Source: Promethearchaeota archaeon (lineage in GTDB: Archaea > Asgardarchaeota > Lokiarchaeia > Sigyniarchaeales > SOKP01). From it: a DNA stretch of 64,000 nt. Location: NCBI GenBank assembly GCA_019058365.1, contig JAHPZE010000001.1, forward strand, positions 160,001 through 224,000. The letters are read 5' to 3'. Shown in pieces: positions 1,268 through 17,308 of this stretch. The notes below the pieces were generated by a model. The model was given only the letters and a program-made list of their open reading frames with translations. It was not told the DNA's origin and searched no databases. Made by a program: the position numbers and the translations under genes. Every line of letters begins with the position of its first letter. Position 1 is the stretch's first letter.

Positions 1268-4200
1268 TTAAGAATTTGATTGGTTATTTTTAAAATCGAC
1301 AGGAATTATTATCTTATTATCAATTAAAGAATGCAAACCCCCATAAATTAAATCTGTATTCTCCTCGCCAATTTCTTGAATTATTCTATCTATTGTGAAC
1401 TCTTTATTATATTTGGTTAAAGTTATTATTACATTAAGGACTCGAGACTCCATTGATTCTAATTCGCGACTTTTTTTCATAGATTCTATATAGACTTCTC
1501 CTTGATTTAACTTAAAAGGCTTATTATAAAATAAAAATAAGAACTTGTTCATTAAAATTTCAATATCATCTTCAAATTCGATAGCTTTTCCTTTATAATC
1601 TTCTATTTCTTCTGAAAACTTAGAGCATATTTCAACTGTTAATATATATAACTGATTTTTTAATTTCTCTGAAGATGCATCTTTAAGGATCAGAAGAGTT
1701 CTTAGACATTGATAATCACAAATAAGTAAATGGAAAAATTTAAAATTCAATTCAATAATATGTTCAGCATATTTTTCTATATGTTTTTTTTTCTCTTTTA
1801 ATGACTCAGCTATAATACTTTGTTCACCAAACAAAGTAATTGCCTGAATAAAACCAGAAATAAGAATATTTTCCTCAAAATTAAATTCAGAAACATTGTT
1901 TGTGAAAAATGGCATACCACTGTTTTTTTGAATAAGCATAATTCCTTGAATATTCTTAAGATCTTTAAACTCCTGAATCTTATCTAAAAATAGTCGTTCT
2001 TTTTCTCTTTTCCTCGGTAAGAATATATAACTTCTTGCAATTAAAGCGCTAAAAACCCCTATTACACTTAAAAGCACTATTGCTATTACCCAGATTAAAT
2101 AACTATTATCTGGAGTTTGTTTTTGTAATACTACTAAAAGAAAAGATGATTCTGTTGCTTTATAATATCCTCCCTCAACAGATATTATAAGCTTTACGTT
2201 ATAACTTCCCGAAGCGCTACTTGGAATATTCAATTGAATTTGGTAAGTCCCATTACCTAAATTTTCAAATTCACTTATATCATATTTCCAAGAGAATAAA
2301 ATGTTAGCAGTTGAAATTAAATTTCCAGAATTTTGTTCCGTTAAGTTTATTTTAATTAATTTTGTGCTTCCTGCATACACATCAAGAGAAGCTTCGAAAC
2401 CCATAGTGCCTACAGAAATCTCTACATAATCTACTCTTATTGTAAGTATCTCTGAAATAAAGACGTAGTTTTCTTTTTCAACTGAAACTGTTAAGTAATG
2501 AGTTCCAACAGATAGGGCTCCCGAGCTAAAAATAGTATAATATCGTTGTCCACTTTCATCTAAGACTCTTGAAATCGCTGATCCATTCAAATTCACAATA
2601 GCACCAGAAATAAAAAGATTTGATAAAGAATCTCTATATAGAATAGTAATATTTAAAGCCATATTCCATTGAATTACTATAGTTTTATCAGCAGTTCTAT
2701 CTACTTGATTCAAATAAATTTCCATATAAGTTGGATTTTCCTCTATAATTACATATATACTTTCGAATGCTGTTTGATATCCAGGATGGCTTAATTGAAA
2801 GAATATTGTATAGTAATCTAATGAAAGATTGCTAGTAGAAAAATATACTATAAAACCGTCAGCAACGGGAGAGATCACATAAGATGATGCCCATGTCACA
2901 TTTAAGGTAGCTCCTGTAATTATCTCCCCCATTCCCGCATCTGTATAATTGACTTTTAGATAGAAGCTTTCATTAAATAAAACATTAACTATAGTCTGAT
3001 TTAGATTTACTTCAGTAGCTATAGGTTGTACTTGTAACGAGATAAAACCAGAAGTACTTCCATAACTGGTTTTATTAACAAAAATAGTAATTGTAAAAAC
3101 CTCTATGATACCTTGAGAGGGTATATTATAAGTAGAAAAGTTTAGTTCAAAATTACCATTAGAACCTAAAACTGAATATGGATTTATCCAATTAGTAGTA
3201 ATGTTTGCATCACCAGGTAATAAAGTACCAGAAATCGCTCCAGTAACATTTATCTGGCAAATAGCATAATCATTTGCCATAGCACTAATAATAGTATGTG
3301 GGACCTCTAATGCGATTGGTTGATTTATTATTTTTAACTGAATAAGATTTCTAACAGACTGATTCTCATAGTAATTTTTTGAAGCATTGAATGAAAAGTA
3401 ATAATTTCCCGCTTCTCGTCCACTTGTATCAACATCAATAACATAAATTCCTGATCCAGTATAAATCATAGTTCCAAAAGTCCCAAAAGTAGAGTTATAA
3501 GTTATTGTCGCAAAATCAATGTATTTATTAAAATCTGAATCCATATACTTTACTCTTATTAAAAGTGGCTCTCCAGAAACTCTCTCTATATAAGAATTTA
3601 TAGCAGTTAGATTTGTATGATGCCACACATTAAACAAAAATTGAGAAAATCCTACTTTATCTCTACTTAAAATAGATTGATTATTTGTCCAAATTATACT
3701 TACTTGATATGTACCGACCGACATATTTTCTCCAACAGTAAAATTGCCAAAATCTACATTATTGGATAATGGTTCTTTTTGAAGTTTCTTGAAAATTGTG
3801 CCATTAGGATATTCAATTGTGCAATTTATTTGTGTATTTGTCAAAGAAATTGTATTGTTTAAAGTTGCATTAATATGAAATGTTTCCCCATATGTAATAT
3901 TAAATTGTTCATTAAAGAATGTTCCATTCCAAACAAACACACTCCCTTTAGTAATATAATTTTGCCCACTCGCCTGAAAGGTCCATAAACCAGAACTTAA
4001 TTGTCCCTGGGGGATTTTCATATTTGTTGATCCAAACTCAATTCCCGTACAGCTTCCTATTTTTTCCACATTATATCCATCTAAAATAGAAGTGATATTC
4101 CAGTCGTTGGGCTTATAGATCTCAGCCCAGTTATTAAAATAACTATAAGGAATTGAAAAAGAGCATTCTGTTTGCCAATTTATTTCATTATTAATTACAT

Positions 4201-5308
4201 AAGTGGAACCTATTTGTCCATCAATTGTAGAATTAAAAATTTTAACTGCTTCTGAAGTAATTGTTATATTATAAATTTCTAAATCTTCTGTATATGATGC
4301 ATTTTTTGATATAGTGAATTTAATATCACTTGTTTCAGTTCTACTTCTTTCTACATCTATAAAGGTTTTCCCCTTACCAAAAGTAATATTTTCGTAGGAA
4401 TATTCTTGATCAAATTCAATATCTTTTGTTATTATCAAATTTTGCTGGTTAGGTTTTGTCCAAAGACTAAATTTAATATCATCAAGATACAAAATTTGGT
4501 CTTTAATTGCAGTACTAGTTGCATCATCTACAAATACTCCTGCCTGTATTGTAATATTTTCAGGAATTAGTTGACCAACTTCTGACATATCATAAGTTAA
4601 ACTGATTTGGTGCCAATAGTCTAATCCTATAGATAAATTAGAAAAACTTACAGAAATATTTTTCTCAATACCACCAATATTAATAGAAATAAAAGCACTA
4701 ATGTTGGGAGACGGTGTTGCTGGATTGATTATATTATACATATAATTCATAGATAAAGTTGCTATTGTATTTGAAGATGGTATTTCTGGGATAGAAAAGT
4801 TTTCTTCGAAATAACCAAAATCTCCTTTAGAAAGAGGTTGTTGTTTAATGACTTTTATTGAAACATTTGCGGGTTGCCAAGGGTTTTTACTAATAATTGC
4901 AGGCTTAGAAGTAGTATATTCCCACGGGTTTTCACCAATATCAAAAGAGCCATTTATTACCCAGTCCTTTTTATGAGATACTCCATCATAATAGATTGTA
5001 ACATTTTTAGAAATCCAATCCTCCAATAATGTAAAGCTGACATTTTTAGGTAATGATAAAGGGAGAAAGGTGTTAGAAATAGTAGCATGTTGATATACCA
5101 ACAAAGGTTTCGCATTTGGACCATTCGAATTTATTTTAAGATTTTTAAAATCATTCAAATTATCATTAAATTGCTTTTTTTTATTGAAACGACTAAGAGA
5201 AATTGAAGAGTTAATTGGGTTTATACAGCTTAAAATTACTGAAATTGAAAATAGGAATATTAAAACCTTAGTTCTTTTCCTTTTTGAAATCCTGAGGTTG
5301 AACTCCAT
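1268..5308 (-). CDS. Large membrane-anchored protein: signal/anchor, long beta-rich glycosylated ectodomain, TM helix, cytoplasmic longin-like and winged-helix domains
   Basis: N-terminal basic plus hydrophobic segment; many N-x-S/T sequons; TM YLIWVIAIVLLSVIGVFSALIA followed by RKREKER; then IQGIMLIQKNSGMPFF...LISGFIQAITLFG (longin-like) and a C-terminal wHTH-like segment. Confidence 0.75.
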   Translation of the reverse strand: MEFNLRISKRKRTKVLIFLFSISVILSCINPINSSISLSRFNKKKQFNDNLNDFKNLKINSNGPNAKPLLVYQHATISNTFLPLSLPKNVSFTLLEDWISKNVTIYYDGVSHKKDWVINGSFDIGENPWEYTTSKPAIISKNPWQPANVSIKVIKQQPLSKGDFGYFEENFSIPEIPSSNTIATLSMNYMYNIINPATPSPNISAFISINIGGIEKNISVSFSNLSIGLDYWHQISLTYDMSEVGQLIPENITIQAGVFVDDATSTAIKDQILYLDDIKFSLWTKPNQQNLIITKDIEFDQEYSYENITFGKGKTFIDVERSRTETSDIKFTISKNASYTEDLEIYNITITSEAVKIFNSTIDGQIGSTYVINNEINWQTECSFSIPYSYFNNWAEIYKPNDWNITSILDGYNVEKIGSCTGIEFGSTNMKIPQGQLSSGLWTFQASGQNYITKGSVFVWNGTFFNEQFNITYGETFHINATLNNTISLTNTQINCTIEYPNGTIFKKLQKEPLSNNVDFGNFTVGENMSVGTYQVSIIWTNNQSILSRDKVGFSQFLFNVWHHTNLTAINSYIERVSGEPLLIRVKYMDSDFNKYIDFATITYNSTFGTFGTMIYTGSGIYVIDVDTSGREAGNYYFSFNASKNYYENQSVRNLIQLKIINQPIALEVPHTIISAMANDYAICQINVTGAISGTLLPGDANITTNWINPYSVLGSNGNFELNFSTYNIPSQGIIEVFTITIFVNKTSYGSTSGFISLQVQPIATEVNLNQTIVNVLFNESFYLKVNYTDAGMGEIITGATLNVTWASSYVISPVADGFIVYFSTSNLSLDYYTIFFQLSHPGYQTAFESIYVIIEENPTYMEIYLNQVDRTADKTIVIQWNMALNITILYRDSLSNLFISGAIVNLNGSAISRVLDESGQRYYTIFSSGALSVGTHYLTVSVEKENYVFISEILTIRVDYVEISVGTMGFEASLDVYAGSTKLIKINLTEQNSGNLISTANILFSWKYDISEFENLGNGTYQIQLNIPSSASGSYNVKLIISVEGGYYKATESSFLLVVLQKQTPDNSYLIWVIAIVLLSVIGVFSALIARSYIFLPRKREKERLFLDKIQEFKDLKNIQGIMLIQKNSGMPFFTNNVSEFNFEENILISGFIQAITLFGEQSIIAESLKEKKKHIEKYAEHIIELNFKFFHLLICDYQCLRTLLILKDASSEKLKNQLYILTVEICSKFSEEIEDYKGKAIEFEDDIEILMNKFLFLFYNKPFKLNQGEVYIESMKKSRELESMESRVLNVIITLTKYNKEFTIDRIIQEIGEENTDLIYGGLHSLIDNKIIIPVDFKNNQSNS

Positions 5309-5604: not shown

Positions 5605-6735
5605 TTAGGATTTATTATCTTTAAAATATTGTAATATTTTCTTTATACATCCAAATGAACTTTTTATTTTAGTAATATCGCAATTATAGGTAATATTATA
5701 AAGAACAATATGTTTCAAGCCAGATTTCGCATAATCTTCTATTTTAGATATAATCTCATCTGGTGTGCCATGTAAAAAACTTTCATCGCACAAATTTGCT
5801 GGGATCTTACCAAAAGCTTCAAGCATAGTTTCTCGGTCGTAGTTTGTAGGGATATAGTCAAGAAGGCCGTAAAAATCTTTGCCGAATGGATGTGAAATAC
5901 CAAATTTTTCAAAATATTCATTTGATTGAATTAAACTATAGTTTTTTACATAAGCGGATTCTAATAGTTTATCACATTCACTATGATCTTCATCAATAAT
6001 TAAATTGCACCATAAGCCGGGTGTAATATCTTCTGGATTGCGTCCTGCTTTTTTTGCTGAATTCTGAATAATATCAAGCTTTTCTTTATATGTTTTAGGA
6101 TTAAAGTTGGATGGTATCCAACCATCTCCTAGTCTCCCCGCCAATTCACACATTTTAGGGCCATGTGCCGCGATCCATATAGGAGGATATTTTTTTTCTT
6201 CATAGGGTTTTATAGAAAGAACAGCATTTTTTAATTTCCAAAATTTCCCATTAAAACTGACTTTTCCTTCATTTTCCCAGAGGAGTTTTATTATTTTTAT
6301 TGCTTCTTCCAATCTGCTAACCGGTTTCTCCCATTTTATACCATAAGGAATGATATTTTCCCCTTCACCGGTACCAATGCCAAGAATTGATCGCCCTTTT
6401 GATATATGATCCAACGTTAAAAAGGTTTGGGCTAGCACAGCTGGATGTCTCCTAAAAGTCTCTGTAACACTCGTACCCAATTTAATATTTTTAGTATTCC
6501 ACGCTGCCACTGACATTACAGAATAAACATCGTAAAAATCGTGTGGACTATTCTGAATTGTTGACATTTCAATAAGGTCTGGAGTCCAAATTGATTCTGG
6601 AATCCAACCCATTAAATGATCTGCAAACCATACTGAATCGTAACCACTATTCTCGATTCTCTTTATGGTTTCAATACCTCTATCAAAAGGCGGGATAAAT
6701 GTACCCTCTGTCCCGAATTTTATATCTATATCCAT
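5605..6735 (-). CDS. LLM-class (luciferase-like) flavin/F420-dependent oxidoreductase
   Basis: GYDSVWFADH, RRHPAVLAQTFLTLDHISKGRSILGIG, PPIWIAAHGPK, GRLGDGW. Confidence 0.9.
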   Translation of the reverse strand: MDIDIKFGTEGTFIPPFDRGIETIKRIENSGYDSVWFADHLMGWIPESIWTPDLIEMSTIQNSPHDFYDVYSVMSVAAWNTKNIKLGTSVTETFRRHPAVLAQTFLTLDHISKGRSILGIGTGEGENIIPYGIKWEKPVSRLEEAIKIIKLLWENEGKVSFNGKFWKLKNAVLSIKPYEEKKYPPIWIAAHGPKMCELAGRLGDGWIPSNFNPKTYKEKLDIIQNSAKKAGRNPEDITPGLWCNLIIDEDHSECDKLLESAYVKNYSLIQSNEYFEKFGISHPFGKDFYGLLDYIPTNYDRETMLEAFGKIPANLCDESFLHGTPDEIISKIEDYAKSGLKHIVLYNITYNCDITKIKSSFGCIKKILQYFKDNKS

Positions 6736-6882: not shown

Positions 6883-7938
6883 TTGATTAGAATCATGAAG
6901 TTTAGTTTTCATATCCCTGTACCAACGCCTCGTCTTGAATATATGTTCGAAGGAACAAAAAAGGCTGAAGAGTGTGGTTTTTTTGGTGTTTTTTATGCTG
7001 ATCATACAGTAATGTTACCTCCCGGTCCAGGAACATGCTATGATGCATATTGTTTTTTAACATCTTTAGCCATGATAACAAAAAAAATTAAATTATGTAC
7101 TGGTGTTTCTGATTGTCATCGCTTTCATCCAGCACTAATGGCACATAAAGTAGCTACAGTAGATCAAATATCTAATGGGAGAGTTATGATAGGGCTTGGA
7201 GCAGGAGAGGCAATGAATATTGACATGTATGGTTTAGATAGAAACAAATCTGTTTCAAAGTTACGAGAATATATTATCTTATTGAGGGAATTTTGGACCA
7301 AGAAAAAAGTCAATAGAAACAGTGAATTCTGGGGAGAAATAAAAAAAGCTTATATTCAAATAAAACCAATTCAGAAAAGTCCACCCATTTATATTGCTGG
7401 CAATGGACCAAAAACACGTCAAATAACTGGAGAATTAGCAGATGGATGGTATCCACTATATCAACCACCATGGCTCTATAAGGAGAAACAAAAAGAGGTT
7501 TTTGATGCAGCAAAAGCAGCTGGTAGAGATCCTACTAAGATTGATTATGTTTATGATTGTTTTGTAGCTATTGATAACGATGATCCGGAGAATGCTATAA
7601 AAAGATGTGAATTCTTTAAATCTTCGTATTTATTAAATTCCTTTATTACAAACGAGGCATATCCTAACTTAGATTTACCAGAAGATATTAATGTTCATGA
7701 TTTTGAAATGAACAGTATAAATTCAATGGATTATTTAGAGAATTTAGATAGACTCCCCGAAACAATTTTGCAAGATACGAATTGTTTAGGTACAGTTGAT
7801 GATGTTATTTCAAGCATAGAAAAATATAAACACGCAGGAGCTACACATATGAGTTTAATGAATCGAGGGCCTGATACGAATAAAGTTTATGAAATATTTC
7901 GAGATAAAATAATACCATACTTTAAAGAATTAGATTAA
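6883..7938 (+). CDS. LLM-class flavin/F420-dependent oxidoreductase
   Basis: GVFYADH, HPALMAHKVATVDQISNGRVMIGLGAG, PPIYIAGNGPK, GELADGW. Real start is probably the ATG of MKFSFH. Confidence 0.9.
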   Translation: MIRIMKFSFHIPVPTPRLEYMFEGTKKAEECGFFGVFYADHTVMLPPGPGTCYDAYCFLTSLAMITKKIKLCTGVSDCHRFHPALMAHKVATVDQISNGRVMIGLGAGEAMNIDMYGLDRNKSVSKLREYIILLREFWTKKKVNRNSEFWGEIKKAYIQIKPIQKSPPIYIAGNGPKTRQITGELADGWYPLYQPPWLYKEKQKEVFDAAKAAGRDPTKIDYVYDCFVAIDNDDPENAIKRCEFFKSSYLLNSFITNEAYPNLDLPEDINVHDFEMNSINSMDYLENLDRLPETILQDTNCLGTVDDVISSIEKYKHAGATHMSLMNRGPDTNKVYEIFRDKIIPYFKELD

Positions 7939-8480
7939 ACCATTTTTTTCTTTCTCCATTCTTCTGCTAAGATCCCCATTAGTATCGCATCATGGTAACT
8001 GCCATTAATCCAAATAGATTGTCGTTTTCTTCCTTCTTCGATGAATCCAACCTTTTTATAACTCTTTAAAGCACTAATATTGAAATCATAAGTATATAAT
8101 TCAATTCTATTTAAATTTACAGTATCAAATCCATATTCAAGTAATAGTTCCATTGCTTCAGTCCCAAATCCTTTATTTTGAAACTCTTTTTCTCCAATTA
8201 CGATTCCAACTTCCCCAACTCTATTTTTACAGTCAATTTTATGGATTCCACAATTTCCAATTAGCTTTTCTGAACCTTCTTCATTAGGAATGACAATTGA
8301 AAAATGAATACTATCTTCTCGGTTTTTTAGATTTTCCATCCATTCTTCTTCAGCCATTCTAGTCATTGGACGATACGCTATAAGATATTGAGTAATCTCA
8401 GGATCATTAAACCATCTTAGAAATGAATCTACATATTCTCTTTTAATCGGACCTAATTTTACTCTTTCTCCTTTTAACAT
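7935..8480 (-). CDS. GNAT N-acetyltransferase, RimJ/RimL family
   Basis: EVGIVIGEKEFQNKGFGTEA (acetyl-CoA motif A), NISALKSYKKVGFIEEG, YHDAILMGILAEEW. Confidence 0.92.
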   Translation of the reverse strand: MLKGERVKLGPIKREYVDSFLRWFNDPEITQYLIAYRPMTRMAEEEWMENLKNREDSIHFSIVIPNEEGSEKLIGNCGIHKIDCKNRVGEVGIVIGEKEFQNKGFGTEAMELLLEYGFDTVNLNRIELYTYDFNISALKSYKKVGFIEEGRKRQSIWINGSYHDAILMGILAEEWRKKKMV

Positions 8481-8559: not shown

Positions 8560-11505
8560 TTAAAATGTAATATTTTTTTTACGTGCAACAAATTTCACGA
8601 TCTCAAATGATACAATACAGATTAAAGAGATTAAGAAGCACACCAACCAATCTAATCCTGTTAAAAACATGAACATAAAATTAAGTCCTGCAGAAGCTAA
8701 GAAAACTTGTACTCCAGGAATATATATCAGAGCAATGAAAACAAAGAATAAAAGCCCAATTAGAACAAACATAAATTTATTTCGATCTTCAATAAGACTC
8801 TTTATCAACGATTTATTTGGCCTTCTAATCTGATATACAAGAATAGATTCACAGAAAAATAGAGTGCACATCATCATTGTTAATGTCTTTCCAATTCTTC
8901 TAATATAAATTAATTGTTCTAATGGATCTACTATTTCAGATGGTATTAACCCATTAATTTGAGATGGTATTAAATCTTTATTAAAATAAAGATAACCTTG
9001 AGGATAATTTTCAGGAAAAACAGGGTATATACCACTAAAAGTTATGAAATAGACTATTATCATACTTAAAGCAAGTAAAATGCCAAATATTAATAAAAGA
9101 ATTAAAATATTTTTTGAAAGGATTTCTTCTGAATCCCGTGGCTTTTCTTTCATTACATCTTTTGAAGTAGTATCAAATGTAAGAATTAGTCCTGGAAACA
9201 TGTGTAAAGTTATTGAGAGAAAAATCCATTGATAATAGAAAGCGTCATCTAAGAAGTAAGGTAAATCCAATATAATAGCTAATATAAATTGAACAATACC
9301 TTCAAAAACATTAATACAAATATAAAAGAATACCACAACACGGACTCTTGCAAATATTCCCCTCCCATGATGAATCCCTGTCACGATTGAGTTGAAGGAA
9401 TCATCTGAAATCACCATATCAGAAGCCTCCTTAGCTACATCAGTTCCTGCAATTCCCATAGCTATCCCTGCGTCTGCTAGGTTTAATGCTAAAGCATCAT
9501 TTACACCATCGCCCGTCATAGCAACAACTTTTTTTTGTTCTTGATATTTTTCAACGATATCTTCTTTATGTTCTGGAGACACTCGAGCAAATACTTTAAT
9601 TTTAGAAAATTCCTCATAAGATTCGATATTTTTAATATCTTTCCCTTCTACAACTATATCGCTATCGTCGGTTACAATAGCGATTTGTGAAGCAATAGCC
9701 CTCGCAGTAGCAGGAGAATCTCCTGTGATCATTACCACATTAACACCTGCTTCATGACATTGTTCTACAGACTCTCTTACACCATCTCTTGGAGGATCTA
9801 AAATTGTAACAAACCCAATAAATGTTAAGTCTGATTCACTTATTTCTCTGCCTTCAACTCCTTCTGGGGGTATCTCATTCATTTCTTTATAACATAAACT
9901 TAAAATTCTATAACCTTGATTTGCATATAAATTTACAATCTCCATAAGTTTCTTCTTTATCTCATCAGAAAATTCGATTTCACTATTATTATAAATTACT
10001 TTTGAACATAAAGGCATTAAAATTTCACTTGCACCCTTTGTGAAAGAAATGTAAATTTGATTTCTTTTGAAGAGTTTTGTCATTCTTTTTAAAGAAGAAT
10101 CAAATGGATATTCTGTAATAAATTCATAATCTTCAAGAATGTAATCACCCATACCCTTCTGGAATAAGACCATTAGTGCTCCCTCAGTAGGAGAGCCAAT
10201 AACATTCCAATTATAAATGGTTTTTCCAGCAATTTCAATTTCATTTTTTACCAATGCTGAATTATTATTTAAAAAGCCAGATGTTAAAAGTAATTTAAGA
10301 TAGGGGTATTCATTGATGTGCTTAACATAAACATGATTCTTAGGGTCATCCATTAACAAAATATCCCCATCGGGGGTGTAACCACTACCCGTTACTCTAA
10401 ATATTGATCCATTTGTCCAAACATATTGAATTGACATCTGGTTTTTAGTTAATGTACCTGTTTTATCAGAACAAACTACACTTACACGTCCTAAACTGTC
10501 AACAGAAGCAAGATTACGTATAATTACACCTTGATGCCCCATTGCTAATACACCAGTTATTAAAACTATCATTGTTAACAATGGTAAATTAATAGGCATT
10601 AAATCGAGAGCAGAATTAAGACTTTTAACAATTTCTAATCGTCGTAGTCCACTTGCGAGCCAAATAATCATTAATGTAATAAACCAAAATATAAAAACTC
10701 CTAATCCCAACCATTTGCCAAAATTATTCATTTTCTGTCGTATTGGAATCTCGCTCGTACCAGCTTCTTCTAATCCATGAGAAATCTTACCAATTTCTGT
10801 ATCTCCACCAGTTTTTACAACTATTGATTTACCATTCCCTGTACTGATATAAGTCCCATAGAAGACCATATTAATCCGTTCTCCTATTGAAATGTCTTTT
10901 TTAATTAAAGACTGACCTCTTTCTGATTTTCGTACGGGTTCTGATTCTCCCGTTAATGAAGCTTCATTTACCAATAAATTGTAAGATTCTATAATTCTAG
11001 AATCTGCAGGAATTTTATCTCCTTGACTTAGCTCTAATACATCACCGATTACTATTTCTTTAGTCGGAATTTCTTTTTTTTGACCATCTCTTATTATGGT
11101 TGACGTCGGTGCTGTTAACTCACGTAAAGCCTTAAGTTTTTTAGTTGCTCTATATTGTTGAATAATAGCGACTAAACAATTTAAAAAAACAATTCCTAAT
11201 GTCAATGCAATAAAAGTTAAATTTCCCTCTCCAATGAAAAACCACGCTAAAAATAAAATTAAAGCCCCAATTAAATATATTACAATTAACCAATTAAACA
11301 ATGGCGCAAGATATATTTTAATAAATCCTTTTGATACTTTGGGAATTTCATTTAAACCGTATTTTTCCAATCGGTTTGTAGCTTCTTTTTCAGATAAACC
11401 ATTCTTAGGATCAGTTTGAAATTTTTTATAGATTTCGTCCAATTCAAGATTATAAAAATTTTCTTCTGTAGATTCCATTGGTGATTCTTCCACAGTTTTT
11501 AACAT
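8560..11505 (-). CDS. P-type ATPase with P2A-like scaffold and atypical PINL TM4 motif (copy 1)
   Basis: TGES, DKTGT, KGASE, DPPR, MITGD and TGDGVNDA motifs, about 10 TM helices. TM4 reads MPINLP instead of IPEGLP. Confidence 0.95.
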   Translation of the reverse strand: MLKTVEESPMESTEENFYNLELDEIYKKFQTDPKNGLSEKEATNRLEKYGLNEIPKVSKGFIKIYLAPLFNWLIVIYLIGALILFLAWFFIGEGNLTFIALTLGIVFLNCLVAIIQQYRATKKLKALRELTAPTSTIIRDGQKKEIPTKEIVIGDVLELSQGDKIPADSRIIESYNLLVNEASLTGESEPVRKSERGQSLIKKDISIGERINMVFYGTYISTGNGKSIVVKTGGDTEIGKISHGLEEAGTSEIPIRQKMNNFGKWLGLGVFIFWFITLMIIWLASGLRRLEIVKSLNSALDLMPINLPLLTMIVLITGVLAMGHQGVIIRNLASVDSLGRVSVVCSDKTGTLTKNQMSIQYVWTNGSIFRVTGSGYTPDGDILLMDDPKNHVYVKHINEYPYLKLLLTSGFLNNNSALVKNEIEIAGKTIYNWNVIGSPTEGALMVLFQKGMGDYILEDYEFITEYPFDSSLKRMTKLFKRNQIYISFTKGASEILMPLCSKVIYNNSEIEFSDEIKKKLMEIVNLYANQGYRILSLCYKEMNEIPPEGVEGREISESDLTFIGFVTILDPPRDGVRESVEQCHEAGVNVVMITGDSPATARAIASQIAIVTDDSDIVVEGKDIKNIESYEEFSKIKVFARVSPEHKEDIVEKYQEQKKVVAMTGDGVNDALALNLADAGIAMGIAGTDVAKEASDMVISDDSFNSIVTGIHHGRGIFARVRVVVFFYICINVFEGIVQFILAIILDLPYFLDDAFYYQWIFLSITLHMFPGLILTFDTTSKDVMKEKPRDSEEILSKNILILLLIFGILLALSMIIVYFITFSGIYPVFPENYPQGYLYFNKDLIPSQINGLIPSEIVDPLEQLIYIRRIGKTLTMMMCTLFFCESILVYQIRRPNKSLIKSLIEDRNKFMFVLIGLLFFVFIALIYIPGVQVFLASAGLNFMFMFLTGLDWLVCFLISLICIVSFEIVKFVARKKNITF

Positions 11506-11623
11506 ATAATTGAATTCAAATTTCTATTCAATATAATAAATAACCTATGATATTCATAACTTTTAATTTATTGCTTTTTTACTAGAATGCATTCAATAGT
11601 AATTTTTCAACATAAAAACAAAA

Positions 11624-14494
11624 TTAAAAATGAATCTTTTTTTCTCGAGCAAAATATTTAAACACTTCAATACCAAATATCCCCGGTAAAGCAAATAAAG
11701 TACAGAGTATCCAATCTGTCCCGCTTAGGAACATGAAATTTATCTGCAACCCTAACCCGAAAACATCATTTATATAGTAATTAACAAGGTATGAAAAACA
11801 AATAAAAAGAATATGCAAACCTAAGGTAAACATACACATAACTAGTAATGAGAGGCTAAATTCTTCTTTTATACTTCTTTTAAGAGATTTATTTGGTCTT
11901 CTAAATGCCCATATGAAATTAGTTTCGAGAATAAATATTGTGGTAATAAACATAGTTCTTGCTTTTTGAGCTATCAATTCAGAAGAAGAAGCGGCAGAAT
12001 TAAAATAACTAATATATGGATTTAAATTCCAATCATTTAAAGGAATAACTTGCCATAATGTTAATTGTAAAATCAAAACTAATCCTAATCCCATGAGAAA
12101 AGCTTGTAGTAATAACATTATCCAGATATTCTTATTTAATATTTGTTCTTCATCTCTAGGAGGTTCTAACATTATATCTTTTGGATGTGTATCTATCACC
12201 AATGCTAATGAAGGAAGAGAGTGTGCAATACCAAAAATATAAATATGTTGCCATTCTGAACTGAAGAGATCAAATGTGGGTATAAATTCATAAGTAAAAA
12301 AGATGATGGCTTCCATTATATTCAAACAAATAAAGAAATATATTATAGTCCTAATTTTTGAAAATAAGCCACGGCCAATCCTAACGCCTTTTTCTATGGA
12401 TGTAAAATTATCGTCTGAGATAACCATATCGGCAATTTCTTTTGCAACATCTGTTCCCGTGATACCCATAGCTATACCCGCATTAGCGAGTTTTAAAGCC
12501 AGTGAATCATTTATTCCATCTCCTGTCATAGCAACTACGTGATCATCTTCCTGATAACGTTTAACAATGATTTCCTTATCGGATGGTTCAACACGAGCAA
12601 AGACAGAAATATTTTCAAAATCTAGCTTTGTAGAACTTCTCAACTGAGAACCTTCGATAACTAAAGCTCCTTCTTTGTGAATTCCCATTTGTGTAGCGAT
12701 TGTTTTGGCTGTTGCGGGGTGATCACCAGTAATCATTGCAACTTTTATACCCCCATTTTGGCATTGTTCAATAGACTCTTTAACTCCTTTTCTTGGAGGG
12801 TCCATAATTGAAACAAATCCTATGAAAATTAGTTCTTTTTCTACATCTTCTCTTTTAGGTTTGTTAACATTAGTAAGCATTTTATAAGATAAAGCAAGCG
12901 TTCTATATCCTTCATTTGCACGATCTGTTATTTTATTCAATATTTCTTTTTTAAAGTTAGAATCTAAAGGTTTTAAATTTCCATTTATATCAATACTAGA
13001 AGAAATCTCAATAATTCTTTCAGGAGCTCCTTTAGTAAAGACAAATATATCATATTTATTATTATCAGATTTACAAATTGAGCTCATTCGTTTTAATTCA
13101 GAAGTAAAAGAAAATTCGGTAATGAATTCATATTTCTTTTTAATATCGTAGGGGATATATCCTGCCTTTTCAACTAATACTAATAAAGCTGCTTCAGTTG
13201 GAGAACCTAGGGCTCGCCTTACCGCCATTTCTCTTTTTTCCTTTAATCTAATTTTCACATCTTCATATGCTAATTGAGCATTATTATTTAAGACCATTGA
13301 ATCTATAAATTTAATAAACGTAGGATTATCTTTCAAACTTATAGGAATACTATTTTTAAATATTTCTCCTTCAGAATCATAACCAGACCCTGTAACGTCA
13401 TATTCTTCCTCGTTAATCCAAAATTTTTCAACAGTCATCTCATTTTTTGTAATAGTGCCTGTTTTATCTGAACAGATTACAGAAACCCTACCAAGTGACT
13501 CTATGGAAGAGAGATTTTTAATTATTACCCCACTTTGAGCCATATTGAGTACACCTGTAATTAAAACCAATGTTGACAAAATGGGAAGATTAATAGGTAA
13601 GACATTGATAGCTCTTAGTATAGAACTGACAAGAGCGCCACTTATTTCTGATTGAATGAAATTTCCTTCAATTAACAATAAAGAAAATTTATAAATGATT
13701 AAAATGATTAAATTTATTACCACGATCGTCCCTAAAATATACCCTAATCTATTTAATTTTCTTGTTAGTGGGATATCTTCAATACTCCCCATTTCATTAA
13801 GGGTTTCAGATATCTTTCCAATCTCAGTATTAATACCTGTTCCTGTAATCAATGCTTTTGCTCTCCCAGTATAAACATATGTTCCCATAAATACCATATT
13901 AATTTGCTTTTGTATTGAAACATCATTCTCTTCGATAATATTATTGGTTTTTTCTACTGGTTCACTTTCACCAGTTAAAGGAGCTTCATCAATGGTAAGA
14001 TTTACATAATTTATGATTCTCCCATCTGCGGGGATTTTATCTCCTTGTTCCAAAACCACAACATCTCCGGGTAATAATTCTCTATTTAGTACTTCGAATT
14101 GATTCCCGTCTCTAATTACTGTGGCTTTTAATGCAGAAATTTTCCGTAGGGATTCTAAAGCCTTCTGTGCTCTATATTGTTGAATTACTACTGTGGCAGA
14201 GTTTAAAATTACAACGGTAAATGTTATAACTGTGTCTTTTGCAGAACCCAAAATTACAATCACTACGCCTGTTATAATAAGAATCATAATCAAAAAGTTG
14301 AAAATTGGAGCAAGATAAATCTTCCAAATTGATTTTTTTATTTTTGGTAATTCATTAAATCCAAATTTTAGATATCTATCATTTAATTCTGATGATTTCA
14401 ATCCATGATCTATATCAGTATTGAAAATGCTGATTAGATCTTCAATGGATTGACTGTAATATTTGATTTCATTAGGTTTTTCTGATGATGACAT
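11624..14494 (-). CDS. P-type ATPase with P2A-like scaffold and atypical PINL TM4 motif (copy 2)
   Basis: TGES, DKTGT, KGAPE, DPPR, MITGD and TGDGINDS motifs. TM4 reads LPINLP. Confidence 0.95.
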   Translation of the reverse strand: MSSSEKPNEIKYYSQSIEDLISIFNTDIDHGLKSSELNDRYLKFGFNELPKIKKSIWKIYLAPIFNFLIMILIITGVVIVILGSAKDTVITFTVVILNSATVVIQQYRAQKALESLRKISALKATVIRDGNQFEVLNRELLPGDVVVLEQGDKIPADGRIINYVNLTIDEAPLTGESEPVEKTNNIIEENDVSIQKQINMVFMGTYVYTGRAKALITGTGINTEIGKISETLNEMGSIEDIPLTRKLNRLGYILGTIVVINLIILIIYKFSLLLIEGNFIQSEISGALVSSILRAINVLPINLPILSTLVLITGVLNMAQSGVIIKNLSSIESLGRVSVICSDKTGTITKNEMTVEKFWINEEEYDVTGSGYDSEGEIFKNSIPISLKDNPTFIKFIDSMVLNNNAQLAYEDVKIRLKEKREMAVRRALGSPTEAALLVLVEKAGYIPYDIKKKYEFITEFSFTSELKRMSSICKSDNNKYDIFVFTKGAPERIIEISSSIDINGNLKPLDSNFKKEILNKITDRANEGYRTLALSYKMLTNVNKPKREDVEKELIFIGFVSIMDPPRKGVKESIEQCQNGGIKVAMITGDHPATAKTIATQMGIHKEGALVIEGSQLRSSTKLDFENISVFARVEPSDKEIIVKRYQEDDHVVAMTGDGINDSLALKLANAGIAMGITGTDVAKEIADMVISDDNFTSIEKGVRIGRGLFSKIRTIIYFFICLNIMEAIIFFTYEFIPTFDLFSSEWQHIYIFGIAHSLPSLALVIDTHPKDIMLEPPRDEEQILNKNIWIMLLLQAFLMGLGLVLILQLTLWQVIPLNDWNLNPYISYFNSAASSSELIAQKARTMFITTIFILETNFIWAFRRPNKSLKRSIKEEFSLSLLVMCMFTLGLHILFICFSYLVNYYINDVFGLGLQINFMFLSGTDWILCTLFALPGIFGIEVFKYFAREKKIHF

Positions 14495-14586: not shown

Positions 14587-15552
14587 TCATAATTTAAGAT
14601 TTTGCGGATTTCCTAATAATTCTTTTAAAAAATGATACTTCTTTCTAATAGTAGTACTTGAAAATTTGCTCGTGCGTTCTATAAGGCTTTGAGTAAATAT
14701 TTTTCGATTGTCAAGTGTTTGTCCTATATAATAAATCAATCCCGCTGTAAATGCTTTATAATTTAGGTTCTGAATTTGGCTATATGAGATTATTTTTAAA
14801 ACTTTATCAGCTAATAATAGCATTTCAATTTTAATTTTTTCATATTCAACCTTATCTGTAAAAAACTCTTGAATTCCTTGGTATGAGATATTGTTCAAAT
14901 CTTTTTGAAAAACAATTTTTATTTTATTTTTAATCTCATATTCTATTTCTAAAGCACTTTTTTTCTCTTTAAATATCTTTTCAGTTCTTTTAACTTTTAG
15001 CATAGCGTTATTGATCATCTTTTTATTGATTTTATGCCCTAATTCTCTGGAAGCTTTAATGAATTCTTCGATTCGTATATTTGTGGTATCTTTTATTTTT
15101 AACCATACAATTGCGAGAAAAATAATAACCATATTTTGATAATTATGGCGATGGTATTTGTTATAGTTCAAATACCTGTCCTTAATTTCTTGGTATTTTA
15201 CATTATCAATGTTTAATCCTATCCCATGGCTTTTTAATAATTCAATTGTCTTTTTTTGTTCAGTAAAATCAGATTCATAGTCTCGGAACCATTTTTCAAG
15301 TGTTTTAATTCGATCGTATTTCTCTTTTATTACGGGATCTTGAAGAGCCTTCGAATTACTTATATTGATTTTTCTTTCATAGTCTCTCTGCGAATCTGTA
15401 TAAAGGTCGCTAGTTGATGCTGTGGATTCAAAAGCTAAATTATCTTCCATAATTAATCCACAATCTTGACAGACTATGAATCCACTGTCTTGTTTGATAT
15501 TTTTATGCGGACACGTAAAAATTTCCGATTTGGAGTTTTTCTTATTATTCAA
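14587..15552 (-). CDS. Divergent TFB/TFIIB-like protein (Zn ribbon plus cyclin-like repeats)
   Basis: N-terminal CPH...VCQDCG ribbon; C-terminal AFTAGLIYYIG...FTQSLIERTSKFSSTTIRKKY resembles the TFB repeat-2 HTH. Confidence 0.7.
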   Translation of the reverse strand: MNNKKNSKSEIFTCPHKNIKQDSGFIVCQDCGLIMEDNLAFESTASTSDLYTDSQRDYERKINISNSKALQDPVIKEKYDRIKTLEKWFRDYESDFTEQKKTIELLKSHGIGLNIDNVKYQEIKDRYLNYNKYHRHNYQNMVIIFLAIVWLKIKDTTNIRIEEFIKASRELGHKINKKMINNAMLKVKRTEKIFKEKKSALEIEYEIKNKIKIVFQKDLNNISYQGIQEFFTDKVEYEKIKIEMLLLADKVLKIISYSQIQNLNYKAFTAGLIYYIGQTLDNRKIFTQSLIERTSKFSSTTIRKKYHFLKELLGNPQNLKL

Positions 15553-16381: not shown

Positions 16382-17308
16382 TTATGTCAACTTACTTTTA
16401 ATCTGTTTGGCTCGACTTCGCAAAGTTACCTCTGTAATCTTCGCAATCTCAGCCACACGGGACTGAGTTTTGCGAATACATCCGTTTTTCGCAGCAATGT
16501 AAATACATGCTGCAGCTAATCCTTTTGGGTCTTTTCCCGTTCTTTTAAGACCATTTTTTGAAGCATCTTTCAACATATTAATTGCATTTTTTTGTATTTT
16601 TATTGGTAGATCTAGTTCATTACCAAATCGAAATACCAAACTCTCAGCAGTTATGGGCTGATACCTTAAATTAAGCTCAGGTAATACCTCACGGATAATC
16701 ATAGCTAAACTTCTATGAACTGTACGCCTTGGTGTTAATGATGCTTCGCATATCTCATCTAATAATCGTGGAAAATCATGAACACGTATAGCAGCATATA
16801 AGGAACCTGAAATAAACCCATTAATTGATCTACCCATAGTTAATTTCTTTTTTGCCACAATACTATATATTTTCCACGCTGTTTCAGCAATGTATTCTGG
16901 TATATTTAATTTAGAAGTCAACATTTTTAATTTCGGTTTTGCTTCCCAAAAATTCCTCTCAATACTAGAGATTAAAGAATTTTGAATTTTTGAGAGTCGA
17001 GAGAAGAGAGCTTGCTCCTTGGCACCAATAGATTTACCTTTACTGTCAGTTTTCGTATTTGGTAACATAGTACGTGGTCCAAAATCTCTCCATCGAGGTT
17101 CTGTTCTACGACGATTTTGAATCTCTTCAATTGTATAAGCTCTCCTTTCATTTCCAACAAATGTTCGTTCAAAAATAATGCCACAATTTAAGCAAACTTT
17201 ATTCCCATCTCGAGATTCAATAATAGGATTTTCACAACATATTGATTGGGGTAATTGATCTTCATCGATTTTATTATTAAAAATTCGGTCACGATACTGC
17301 TCATTCAT
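16382..17308 (-). CDS. tfb: Transcription initiation factor IIB (TFB)
   Basis: CC...VCLNCG ribbon, B-reader-like ERRAY...RRRTEP, SSIERNF, GRSINGFISGSLYAAIR, GKDPKGLAAACIYIA, TQSRVAEIAKITEVTLRSR. Confidence 0.93.
   Translation of the reverse strand: MNEQYRDRIFNNKIDEDQLPQSICCENPIIESRDGNKVCLNCGIIFERTFVGNERRAYTIEEIQNRRRTEPRWRDFGPRTMLPNTKTDSKGKSIGAKEQALFSRLSKIQNSLISSIERNFWEAKPKLKMLTSKLNIPEYIAETAWKIYSIVAKKKLTMGRSINGFISGSLYAAIRVHDFPRLLDEICEASLTPRRTVHRSLAMIIREVLPELNLRYQPITAESLVFRFGNELDLPIKIQKNAINMLKDASKNGLKRTGKDPKGLAAACIYIAAKNGCIRKTQSRVAEIAKITEVTLRSRAKQIKSKLT

Follow-up and report, generated by a model that had tools for sequence, protein, structure and literature searches.

Which ion or molecule is moved by two adjacent P-type ATPases of an Asgard archaeon that lack the glutamate typical of calcium pumps in the fourth transmembrane helix (TM4)? 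The pair, copy 1 (P0001) and copy 2 (P0002), lies in a stretch of 64,000 nucleotides from a Promethearchaeota archaeon (GenBank assembly GCA_019058365.1, contig JAHPZE010000001.1, positions 160,001 to 224,000), which is called the window here. A sequence-only reading of this DNA had observed that TM4 of both pumps reads PINLP instead of PEGLP. It had proposed an undescribed P-type subclass, possibly lipid flippases or intermediates between P2 and P4 pumps. The analysis described here makes it fairly likely that the two proteins are old paralogues within a branch of P2-like P-type ATPases that is monophyletic and had not been characterised before, and that they are single-site cation pumps. They are probably pumps for a cation other than calcium, and not lipid flippases.

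The two genes are separated by 118 bp and their products are 42% identical over the full length. In Pfam, both match the five domains found in P2/P3-type pumps (Cation_ATPase_N, E1-E2_ATPase, Cation_ATPase, Hydrolase and Cation_ATPase_C). The motifs TGES, DKTGT and GDGxND were located in both proteins and both open reading frames (ORFs) are complete, so the catalytic motifs are intact as first described. The first Pro of PINLP precedes the phospho-Asp by 43 residues in both copies (P304/D347 and P300/D343; residue numbers below are those of copy 1). The pair was aligned by MAFFT with 97 pumps, which read PEGLP in TM4, N..E in TM5, N..TD in TM6 and E or Q in TM8. At these positions the pair has PINLP, N..E, S..LH (copy 1) or F..AH (copy 2), and E. 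HMMER aligned the TM4 segment without gaps to the PEGLP of human SPCA1. It also aligned TM5 to TM6 with the solved ATP12A, placing N732 and E735 on N and E, S764 on the first TM6 Asp and H768 on the second. These three checks of the register agree, and the TM6 assignments S/L/H in copy 1 and F/A/H in copy 2 are therefore right. Likewise, PINLP stands in exact PEGLP register, and the TM5 Asn and Glu and the TM8 Glu are retained.

In SERCA, calcium site II consists of E309, N796 and D800, and site I of N768, E771, T799, D800 and E908. All three site II ligands are replaced in the pair. This supports the earlier inference that the two are not calcium pumps, in that SERCA-style calcium pumps are unlikely.

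We examined the substitutions across homologues using an exhaustive HMMER search of 1.84 billion representative sequences. A step was visible in the match list. About 35 of the listed matches, 31 of them full-length, carry a TM4 of the form P-[ILVFWM]-[NS]-[ILF]-[PV], and nearly all others read PE[GAS]LP. Conservation was then counted in 153 full-length members. E886, like H768, was found in all of them, and E735 and N732 in 152/153. At the position of N306, 134 members have Asn and 19 have Ser. The E309 position holds I in 98, L in 30, W in 20, F in three and V in two; Glu occurs in none. The second Pro of TM4 is kept in 149/153 members, LTGES is found in 148/153 and DGET in 0/153, and the TM2 residue N109 is conserved in 133/153. 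As the representatives are only 34-55% identical to one another, the near invariance of H768, E886, E735 and N732 means that the pattern is not due to chance.

The change in TM4 is coupled across the family to G310 becoming Asn, D800 becoming His and N796 and T799 becoming variable, with N768, E771 and E908 kept. For comparison, Asp occupies the D800 position in 92% of PEGLP pumps. Further family-specific positions are P68 in TM1 (Gln in P2A pumps), Q117 in TM2 (Glu in P2A) and GDGVNDALAL (APAL in P2A). From the alignment, the signature of the clade would be TM4 P-[hydrophobic]-[N/S]-[hydrophobic]-P, TM5 N..E, His at the D800 position of TM6 and Glu in TM8, with a hydrophobic or variable residue at N796. 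The sequence-only reading had attributed the shared substitutions to selection, and the essentially invariant His, both Glu and TM5 Asn bear this out. It had also named a lack of conservation of PINL and His in orthologues as evidence against its proposal: the His is present in 153/153 members, and the Ile is not conserved. What selection keeps is a buried Glu-Glu-His-Asn set together with a bulky hydrophobic plug at the former site II, and not Ile itself.

A separate observation concerns the member P0150, one of the family representatives. Its site is degenerate: TM4 reads PVSIP, the His is replaced by Phe and the TM8 Glu by Gln. This copy may be in decay or have been re-purposed.

The position of the clade was determined with profile scores and trees. 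Among the NCBIfam models only TIGR01494, the generic P-type model, was passed (279 and 285 bits; cut-off 62.3). The PMR1-type model TIGR01522 gave 474 and 462 bits (cut-off 798.3) and the SERCA-type model TIGR01116 gave 425 and 460 bits (cut-off 703.4). Sampled PEGLP pumps, two of them from the same genome, reached 595-750 bits and likewise stayed under the strict P2A cut-offs. In a FastTree phylogeny of 134 rows, rooted on the P1B pumps of the genome, the 31 representatives span one branch with a support of 100. IQ-TREE with the C20 posterior mean site frequency (PMSF) model and 57 rows again separated the clade from PEGLP pumps with a support of 100. The clade stands as sister to all PEGLP pumps sampled (97-100) and is not nested among them, and both trees place it with P2 pumps and not with the P3A pump of the genome. 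In line with this, the best sequence matches in the PDB were Listeria LMCA1, SPCA1, Na/K-ATPase and SERCA, all of P2 type. The ESM Atlas returned the family's own cluster followed by bacterial P2 pumps. Close homologues are labelled 'Ca2+-transporting' or 'cation-translocating' ATPase in databases, and literature searches on the TM4 motifs and on Asgard P-type ATPases and flippases returned no description of the clade. Taken together, these results are in agreement with the proposal of an undescribed P-type subclass.

A model of copy 1 was calculated with AlphaFold2 on the family alignment. The mean predicted local distance difference test score (pLDDT) was 82.7 and the predicted TM-score (pTM) 0.76. 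In the model, the TM4 helix is unwound at residues 302-306 (M-P-I-N-L), in the manner of the canonical binding site. When the PDB was searched with Foldseek, the top 50 structures were SPCA1, SERCA and H/K- and Na/K-ATPases, and the TM-scores reached 0.75.

The catalytic parts of the E1/E2 cycle are all intact, namely the phospho-Asp, the TGES loop, the N and P domains, the ten-helix membrane domain and the unwound TM4. The pair would accordingly work as ordinary ATP-driven pumps. Site II would be gone, with E309, N796 and D800 replaced by a bulky hydrophobic residue, a variable and mostly non-ligand residue, and His. What would remain is a modified site I, in which the kept equivalents of N768, E771 and E908 are joined by the invariant TM6 His and the new Asn or Ser of TM4. 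Loss of site II with a modified site I left over points to a single bound cation per cycle. This cation would sit between TM4, TM5, TM6 and TM8, with two carboxylates, an imidazole and one or two amides as its ligands. Phosphorylation of D347 or D343 would occlude it, and it would then leave on the opposite side of the membrane, with protons on the Glu and His residues probably moving the other way. A set of two Glu, one His and one Asn suggests a nitrogen-tolerant divalent metal (Mn2+, Fe2+, Zn2+, Co2+ or Ni2+) rather than Ca2+. P1B-4 pumps use a TM6 His for Co2+ and Fe2+. The next candidate suggested by the ligands is a proton carried on His or Glu. To our knowledge, all characterised single-site P2 calcium pumps keep site II. 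The arrangement proposed here is therefore their opposite, and it is one that has not been described.

Several points weigh against this interpretation. The preference for one ion over another is suggested by ligand chemistry alone, and the putative geometry of the binding site is taken from SERCA homology. The trees were built without eukaryotic P2B-D, P4 or P5 sequences, for which HMM (hidden Markov model) scores were used instead. The gene neighbourhood is uninformative: GNAT and TFB-like genes accompany the pumps in the Asgard family of the window (f1), as against a subtilase, a UFM1-ligase-like gene and PanB in another family (f31). Finally, the cytoplasmic entry lacks its former acidic and polar residues (Glu to Gln in TM2, Gln to Pro in TM1). 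Such an entry fits a divalent cation less well and speaks, if only mildly, for a proton or a monovalent ion.

The same loss at the ion entry is one of the features that would fit proton pumps. In these, H768 would take the role that the TM6 Asp has in P3A pumps and carry the proton next to the conserved TM2 Asn. The hydrophobic E309 position within a P-x-x-x-P TM4 is shared with P3A, as in the PVALP pump of this genome; N109 is largely conserved and the pKa of His is suitable. However, the genome already has a true P3A pump, the P3A model TIGR01647 gave only 346 and 337 bits (cut-off 615.5), and a P3A mechanism does not require the two buried Glu that are invariant here. We regard dedicated proton pumps as unlikely. 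This explanation does overlap with that of a single-site cation pump, for which the proton is one candidate cation.

Calcium, or calcium and manganese, could still be transported through a modified site I only, with a stoichiometry of 1:1. The closest curated models and structures are those of calcium pumps (PMR1- and SERCA-type models; LMCA1 and SPCA1 in the PDB), three of the five site I side chains are kept, and single-site calcium pumps exist (SPCA, PMCA and LMCA1). However, these pumps keep site II, the one that is lost here. Moreover, D800, which bridges both sites, is replaced by His, a poor calcium ligand, and T799 is lost as well. The scores on the curated calcium models lie 240-330 bits under their cut-offs, and the genome contains a separate pump with canonical PEGLP and N..TD. 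Calcium transport by the pair is thus quite improbable.

Still less probable are P5B-like pumps for organic cations such as polyamines, whose amine groups would be bound by the two Glu and the His. The buried carboxylates, the hydrophobic TM4 position and a GNAT acetyltransferase directly downstream of the pumps would fit such a function. On the P5 model TIGR01657, however, the pair scored 245 and 253 bits (cut-off 618), no more than ordinary P2A pumps (210-268), and its TM4 lacks the PPALP motif. The GNAT neighbour is seen in close relatives only and not in other Asgard families.

P4 pumps carry PISL in TM4, with a conserved Ile and without the second Pro. Lipid flippases or P2-to-P4 intermediates, with the hydrophobic TM4 residue as a gate for the lipid head group, would be in keeping with the P-I-[N/S]-L of TM4 (PWSFP, with Ser, in a Thermoplasmatota branch), the loss of site II and an Asgard host, but are extremely unlikely given that TGES and the second Pro are kept, DGET is absent, the buried Glu, Glu and His are invariant and the Ile is not. 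Four family members gave 112, 110, 114 and 147 bits on the P4 model TIGR01652 (cut-off 431.25), barely above the 95-109 bits of four PEGLP pumps, and the best P4 fragments in the genome lie in its canonical PEGLP pump and not in the PINLP pair. The 60 best PDB matches of the TM4 segment alone included SPCA1, SERCA, H/K-ATPase, LMCA1, Pma1 and MgtA but no P4 pump, and no P4 pump was among the 50 best fold matches. A search for the domain of CDC50 (PF03381), the beta subunit of P4A and P4C pumps only, gave no match in the genome, and the same search was silent in all control genomes too. A hydrophobic residue or Ile at the E309 position, which had been read as a hallmark of P4 pumps, cannot serve as one, since this position is I, L, W, F or V in the family and Val in the P3A proton pump of the genome. 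The P4 motif of the A-domain is DGET, and pumps of the P4 and P5 types occur in eukaryotes only (PMC10654040). Nothing in our data challenges this restriction.

The family described here is widespread. Source names of close homologues were Promethearchaeota, Loki-, Thor-, Hod-, Heimdall-, Hermod- and Odinarchaeota metagenome-assembled genomes. These names, like the phylum-level kinship of the genome, are in keeping with an Asgard origin. Calibration of the family profile showed that ordinary PEGLP pumps score highly on it (805-903 bits; true members 966-1345). A tally of 382/400 at E<=1e-100 was rejected as over-inclusive for this reason. The final Asgard tally used E<=1e-290 and genomes at least 90% complete. 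The family was found in 155/189 genomes, 69/90 high-quality genomes, 45/57 genera and 13/23 families; in ten Asgard families no member was detected at this threshold. In a single-contig, 100% complete genome from one of these ten families, each of the 23 candidates was scored, and TM4 has PE[GSE]L or PDLL at the five loci that were read. A motif-based scan of contigs (C[ST]DKTGT and GDG[VI]ND) returned 80 loci, all of PEGLP type, and was uninformative on the range of the family. The most basal branch has PWSFP in TM4 with the same TM6 His and bears the NCBI name Thermoplasmatota. Evenly sampled Thermoplasmatota contained the family in 10/151 genomes (about 7%). Systematic sampling covered the Asgard and Thermoplasmatota phyla and left out Thermoproteota. 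The family is thus neither universal in Asgard archaea nor confined to them.

A pair of copies, usually in tandem, is the rule only in the Asgard family to which the window belongs, and most other families have one. In the sister family f3, the genomes G135, G137, G138 and G143 have three to four copies each. Copy 1 and copy 2 fall into different well-supported sub-clades. At eight tandem loci of the window's family each copy groups with its positional counterpart, which indicates that the duplication is old and that both copies have been maintained. Retention in so many genomes together with separate orthologous copies argues for a function. The N796 and T799 positions differ consistently between the sub-clades (S/T..L in copy 1, F/Y..A/V in copy 2), and this difference may reflect different ions or affinities.

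Other pumps of the genome were also inspected. Besides the pair, it has a canonical pump with PEGLP, a pump with PEGLI, a true P3A pump, and two metal pumps of the CPC type. Since these are present, the PINLP pair is an addition and probably has a different role. The P3A H+-ATPase (G000:C47:68851-71310; L093) scored 988 bits on TIGR01647 and has PVALP in TM4. The P2 pump with PEGLI in TM4 (G000:C12:24607-27492; L095) fails every curated cut-off.

The gene neighbourhood was compared between the window and 15 loci from other genomes. The order GNAT, pump, pump, TFB-like, membrane ORF, TFB was found in close relatives only. The 321-aa TFIIB-like ORF is syntenic with the pumps in 7/16 loci, all of close relatives. 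Across the 16 loci no conserved partner, membrane-protein partner or regulator was found beside the pumps. The positions of the motifs and neighbouring genes are listed in the table.

Table. Positions of the pump genes, their motifs and neighbouring genes in the window.
Feature	Position	Strand	Remarks
Copy 1 (P0001), P-type ATPase, 981 aa	8560-11505	-	ORF open and complete; translation
Copy 2 (P0002), P-type ATPase, 956 aa	11624-14494	-	ORF open and complete; trees
Copy 1 TM4 PINLP (I305 at SERCA E309, N306 at G310)	10582-10596	-	Alignments, motif mapping
Copy 2 TM4 PINLP	13583-13597	-	Alignment, motif mapping
Copy 1 DKTGT, phospho-Asp D347	10453-10467	-	Motif mapping; DKTGT invariant in family alignment
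Copy 2 DKTGT, phospho-Asp D343	13454-13468	-	Motif mapping
Copy 1 A-domain phosphatase motif TGES (not P4-type DGET)	10942-10953	-	
Copy 2 A-domain TGES	13964-13975	-	
Copy 1 GDGVND	9496-9513	-	
Copy 1 TM5 NVFE, N732-x-x-E735 (SERCA N768/E771), kept	9301-9312	-	
Copy 2 TM5 NIME, N-x-x-E	12311-12322	-	
Copy 1 TM6 TLHMFP (H768 at SERCA D800, L767 at T799)	9193-9210	-	
Copy 1 TM6 S764 at SERCA N796	9214-9216	-	
Copy 2 TM6 IAHSLP, His at SERCA D800	12212-12229	-	
Copy 1 TM8 FCES, E886 (SERCA E908), kept	8845-8856	-	
Copy 2 TM8 ILET, Glu kept	11921-11932	-	
GNAT acetyltransferase, directly downstream of the pumps	7935-8480	-	Syntenic in 6 same-family loci; absent in other Asgard families
Luciferase-like monooxygenase genes (PF00296), divergent pair	5605-6735 and 6883-7938	- and +	Syntenic with pumps in close relatives only
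TFIIB-like gene, 321 aa, upstream, nearer to the pumps	14587-15552	-	Weak Zn-ribbon match; no membrane helix
Second TFIIB-like gene, upstream of the pumps	16382-17308	-	

Two further observations were made in these neighbourhoods. A 1346-aa ORF at positions 1268-5308 of the window (- strand) shows two segments in a hydrophobicity scan, one near the N-terminus and one around residue 1070. In family f31 (loci L097, L098, L099 and L109) a single-copy pump is followed by an ORF of 651-666 aa (L097:10886-12871, + strand), the start of which overlaps the pump stop codon by 4 nt in L097. This ORF has a short match to PF09743 (E3 UFM1-protein ligase 1; E 1.5e-10) and may be an Asgard UFL1-like gene. 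A subtilase gene lies divergently upstream and PanB downstream.

The class and cargo of P-type ATPases are predicted from residues in TM4, TM5, TM6 and TM8, and the family was therefore compared with known systems at these positions. P2A pumps are its closest relatives (LMCA1, PDB 9euq and 6zhf; SPCA1/PMR1, 8iwt; SERCA), with E values of 1e-121 to 1e-98 and TM-scores of 0.69-0.75. Domain order, TGES, DKTGT, GDGVNDA, the P-x-x-x-P of TM4, the N..E of TM5 and the TM8 Glu are shared. In contrast to P2A pumps, the Glu of PEGLP is I, L, W, F or V and the Gly is Asn or Ser, the N..TD of TM6 has become x..xH, GDGVNDAPAL reads GDGVNDALAL, the QE of TM2 is QQ, and the family forms its own clade. With P3A pumps (Pma1, PDB 1mhs and 7nxf) it has in common the hydrophobic E309 position, the P-x-x-x-P of TM4, a protonatable residue at the D800 position and the conserved TM2 Asn; unlike in P3A, the TM6 residue is His and not Asp, and the buried Glu of TM5 and TM8 are kept. 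The likeness to P4 pumps (TIGR01652; Drs2, ATP8A1 and Neo1) is restricted to the local TM4 motif P-[I]-[S/N]-[L], as DGET is missing and the second TM4 Pro and the buried carboxylates are present. P5 pumps differ in TM4, which reads PP[E/A]LP and not PINLP. It is scarcely credible that the hydrophobic TM4 gate and the lost site II serve a substrate that is amphipathic or not a metal, such as a lipid head group or a polyamine, which would make the clade a functional forerunner or an independent invention of the eukaryotic P4/P5 mode. The family gives no archaeal origin for eukaryotic lipid flippases.

A precedent is provided by CtpE of Mycobacterium, in which the PEGL of TM4 is retained and Ile stands in place of the TM6 Asp, and which was raised to a new family, P6, after this loss and a different transport had been shown (PMC10654040). 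There, loss of the TM6 Asp goes along with a changed mode of transport. Compared by published description only, both groups are prokaryotic offshoots of calcium-pump-like ATPases without the TM6 Asp, but the family described here has lost PEGL and carries a TM6 His, by which CtpE is set apart. An abolished site II together with a site I rebuilt around His is a combination seen in no characterised subfamily. Tentatively, and with more doubt than confidence, though more likely than an amphipathic or non-metal substrate, the clade could be a new P-type subfamily of a rank comparable to P6, with a P2 scaffold and a transition metal bound by His as its cargo. Undescribed prokaryotic P-type families are to be expected (PMC10654040). 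The present family is among the commonest Asgard pumps, yet it is labelled 'Ca2+-transporting ATPase' in databases. This bears on statements about Asgard calcium signalling that rest on such annotations, for example where 'a putative Ca2+ ATPase' is listed in Asgard proteomes (PMC7997004). Finding the transported ion would correct the annotation in Asgard and Thermoplasmatota genomes and add a new specificity class to the P-type ATPases.

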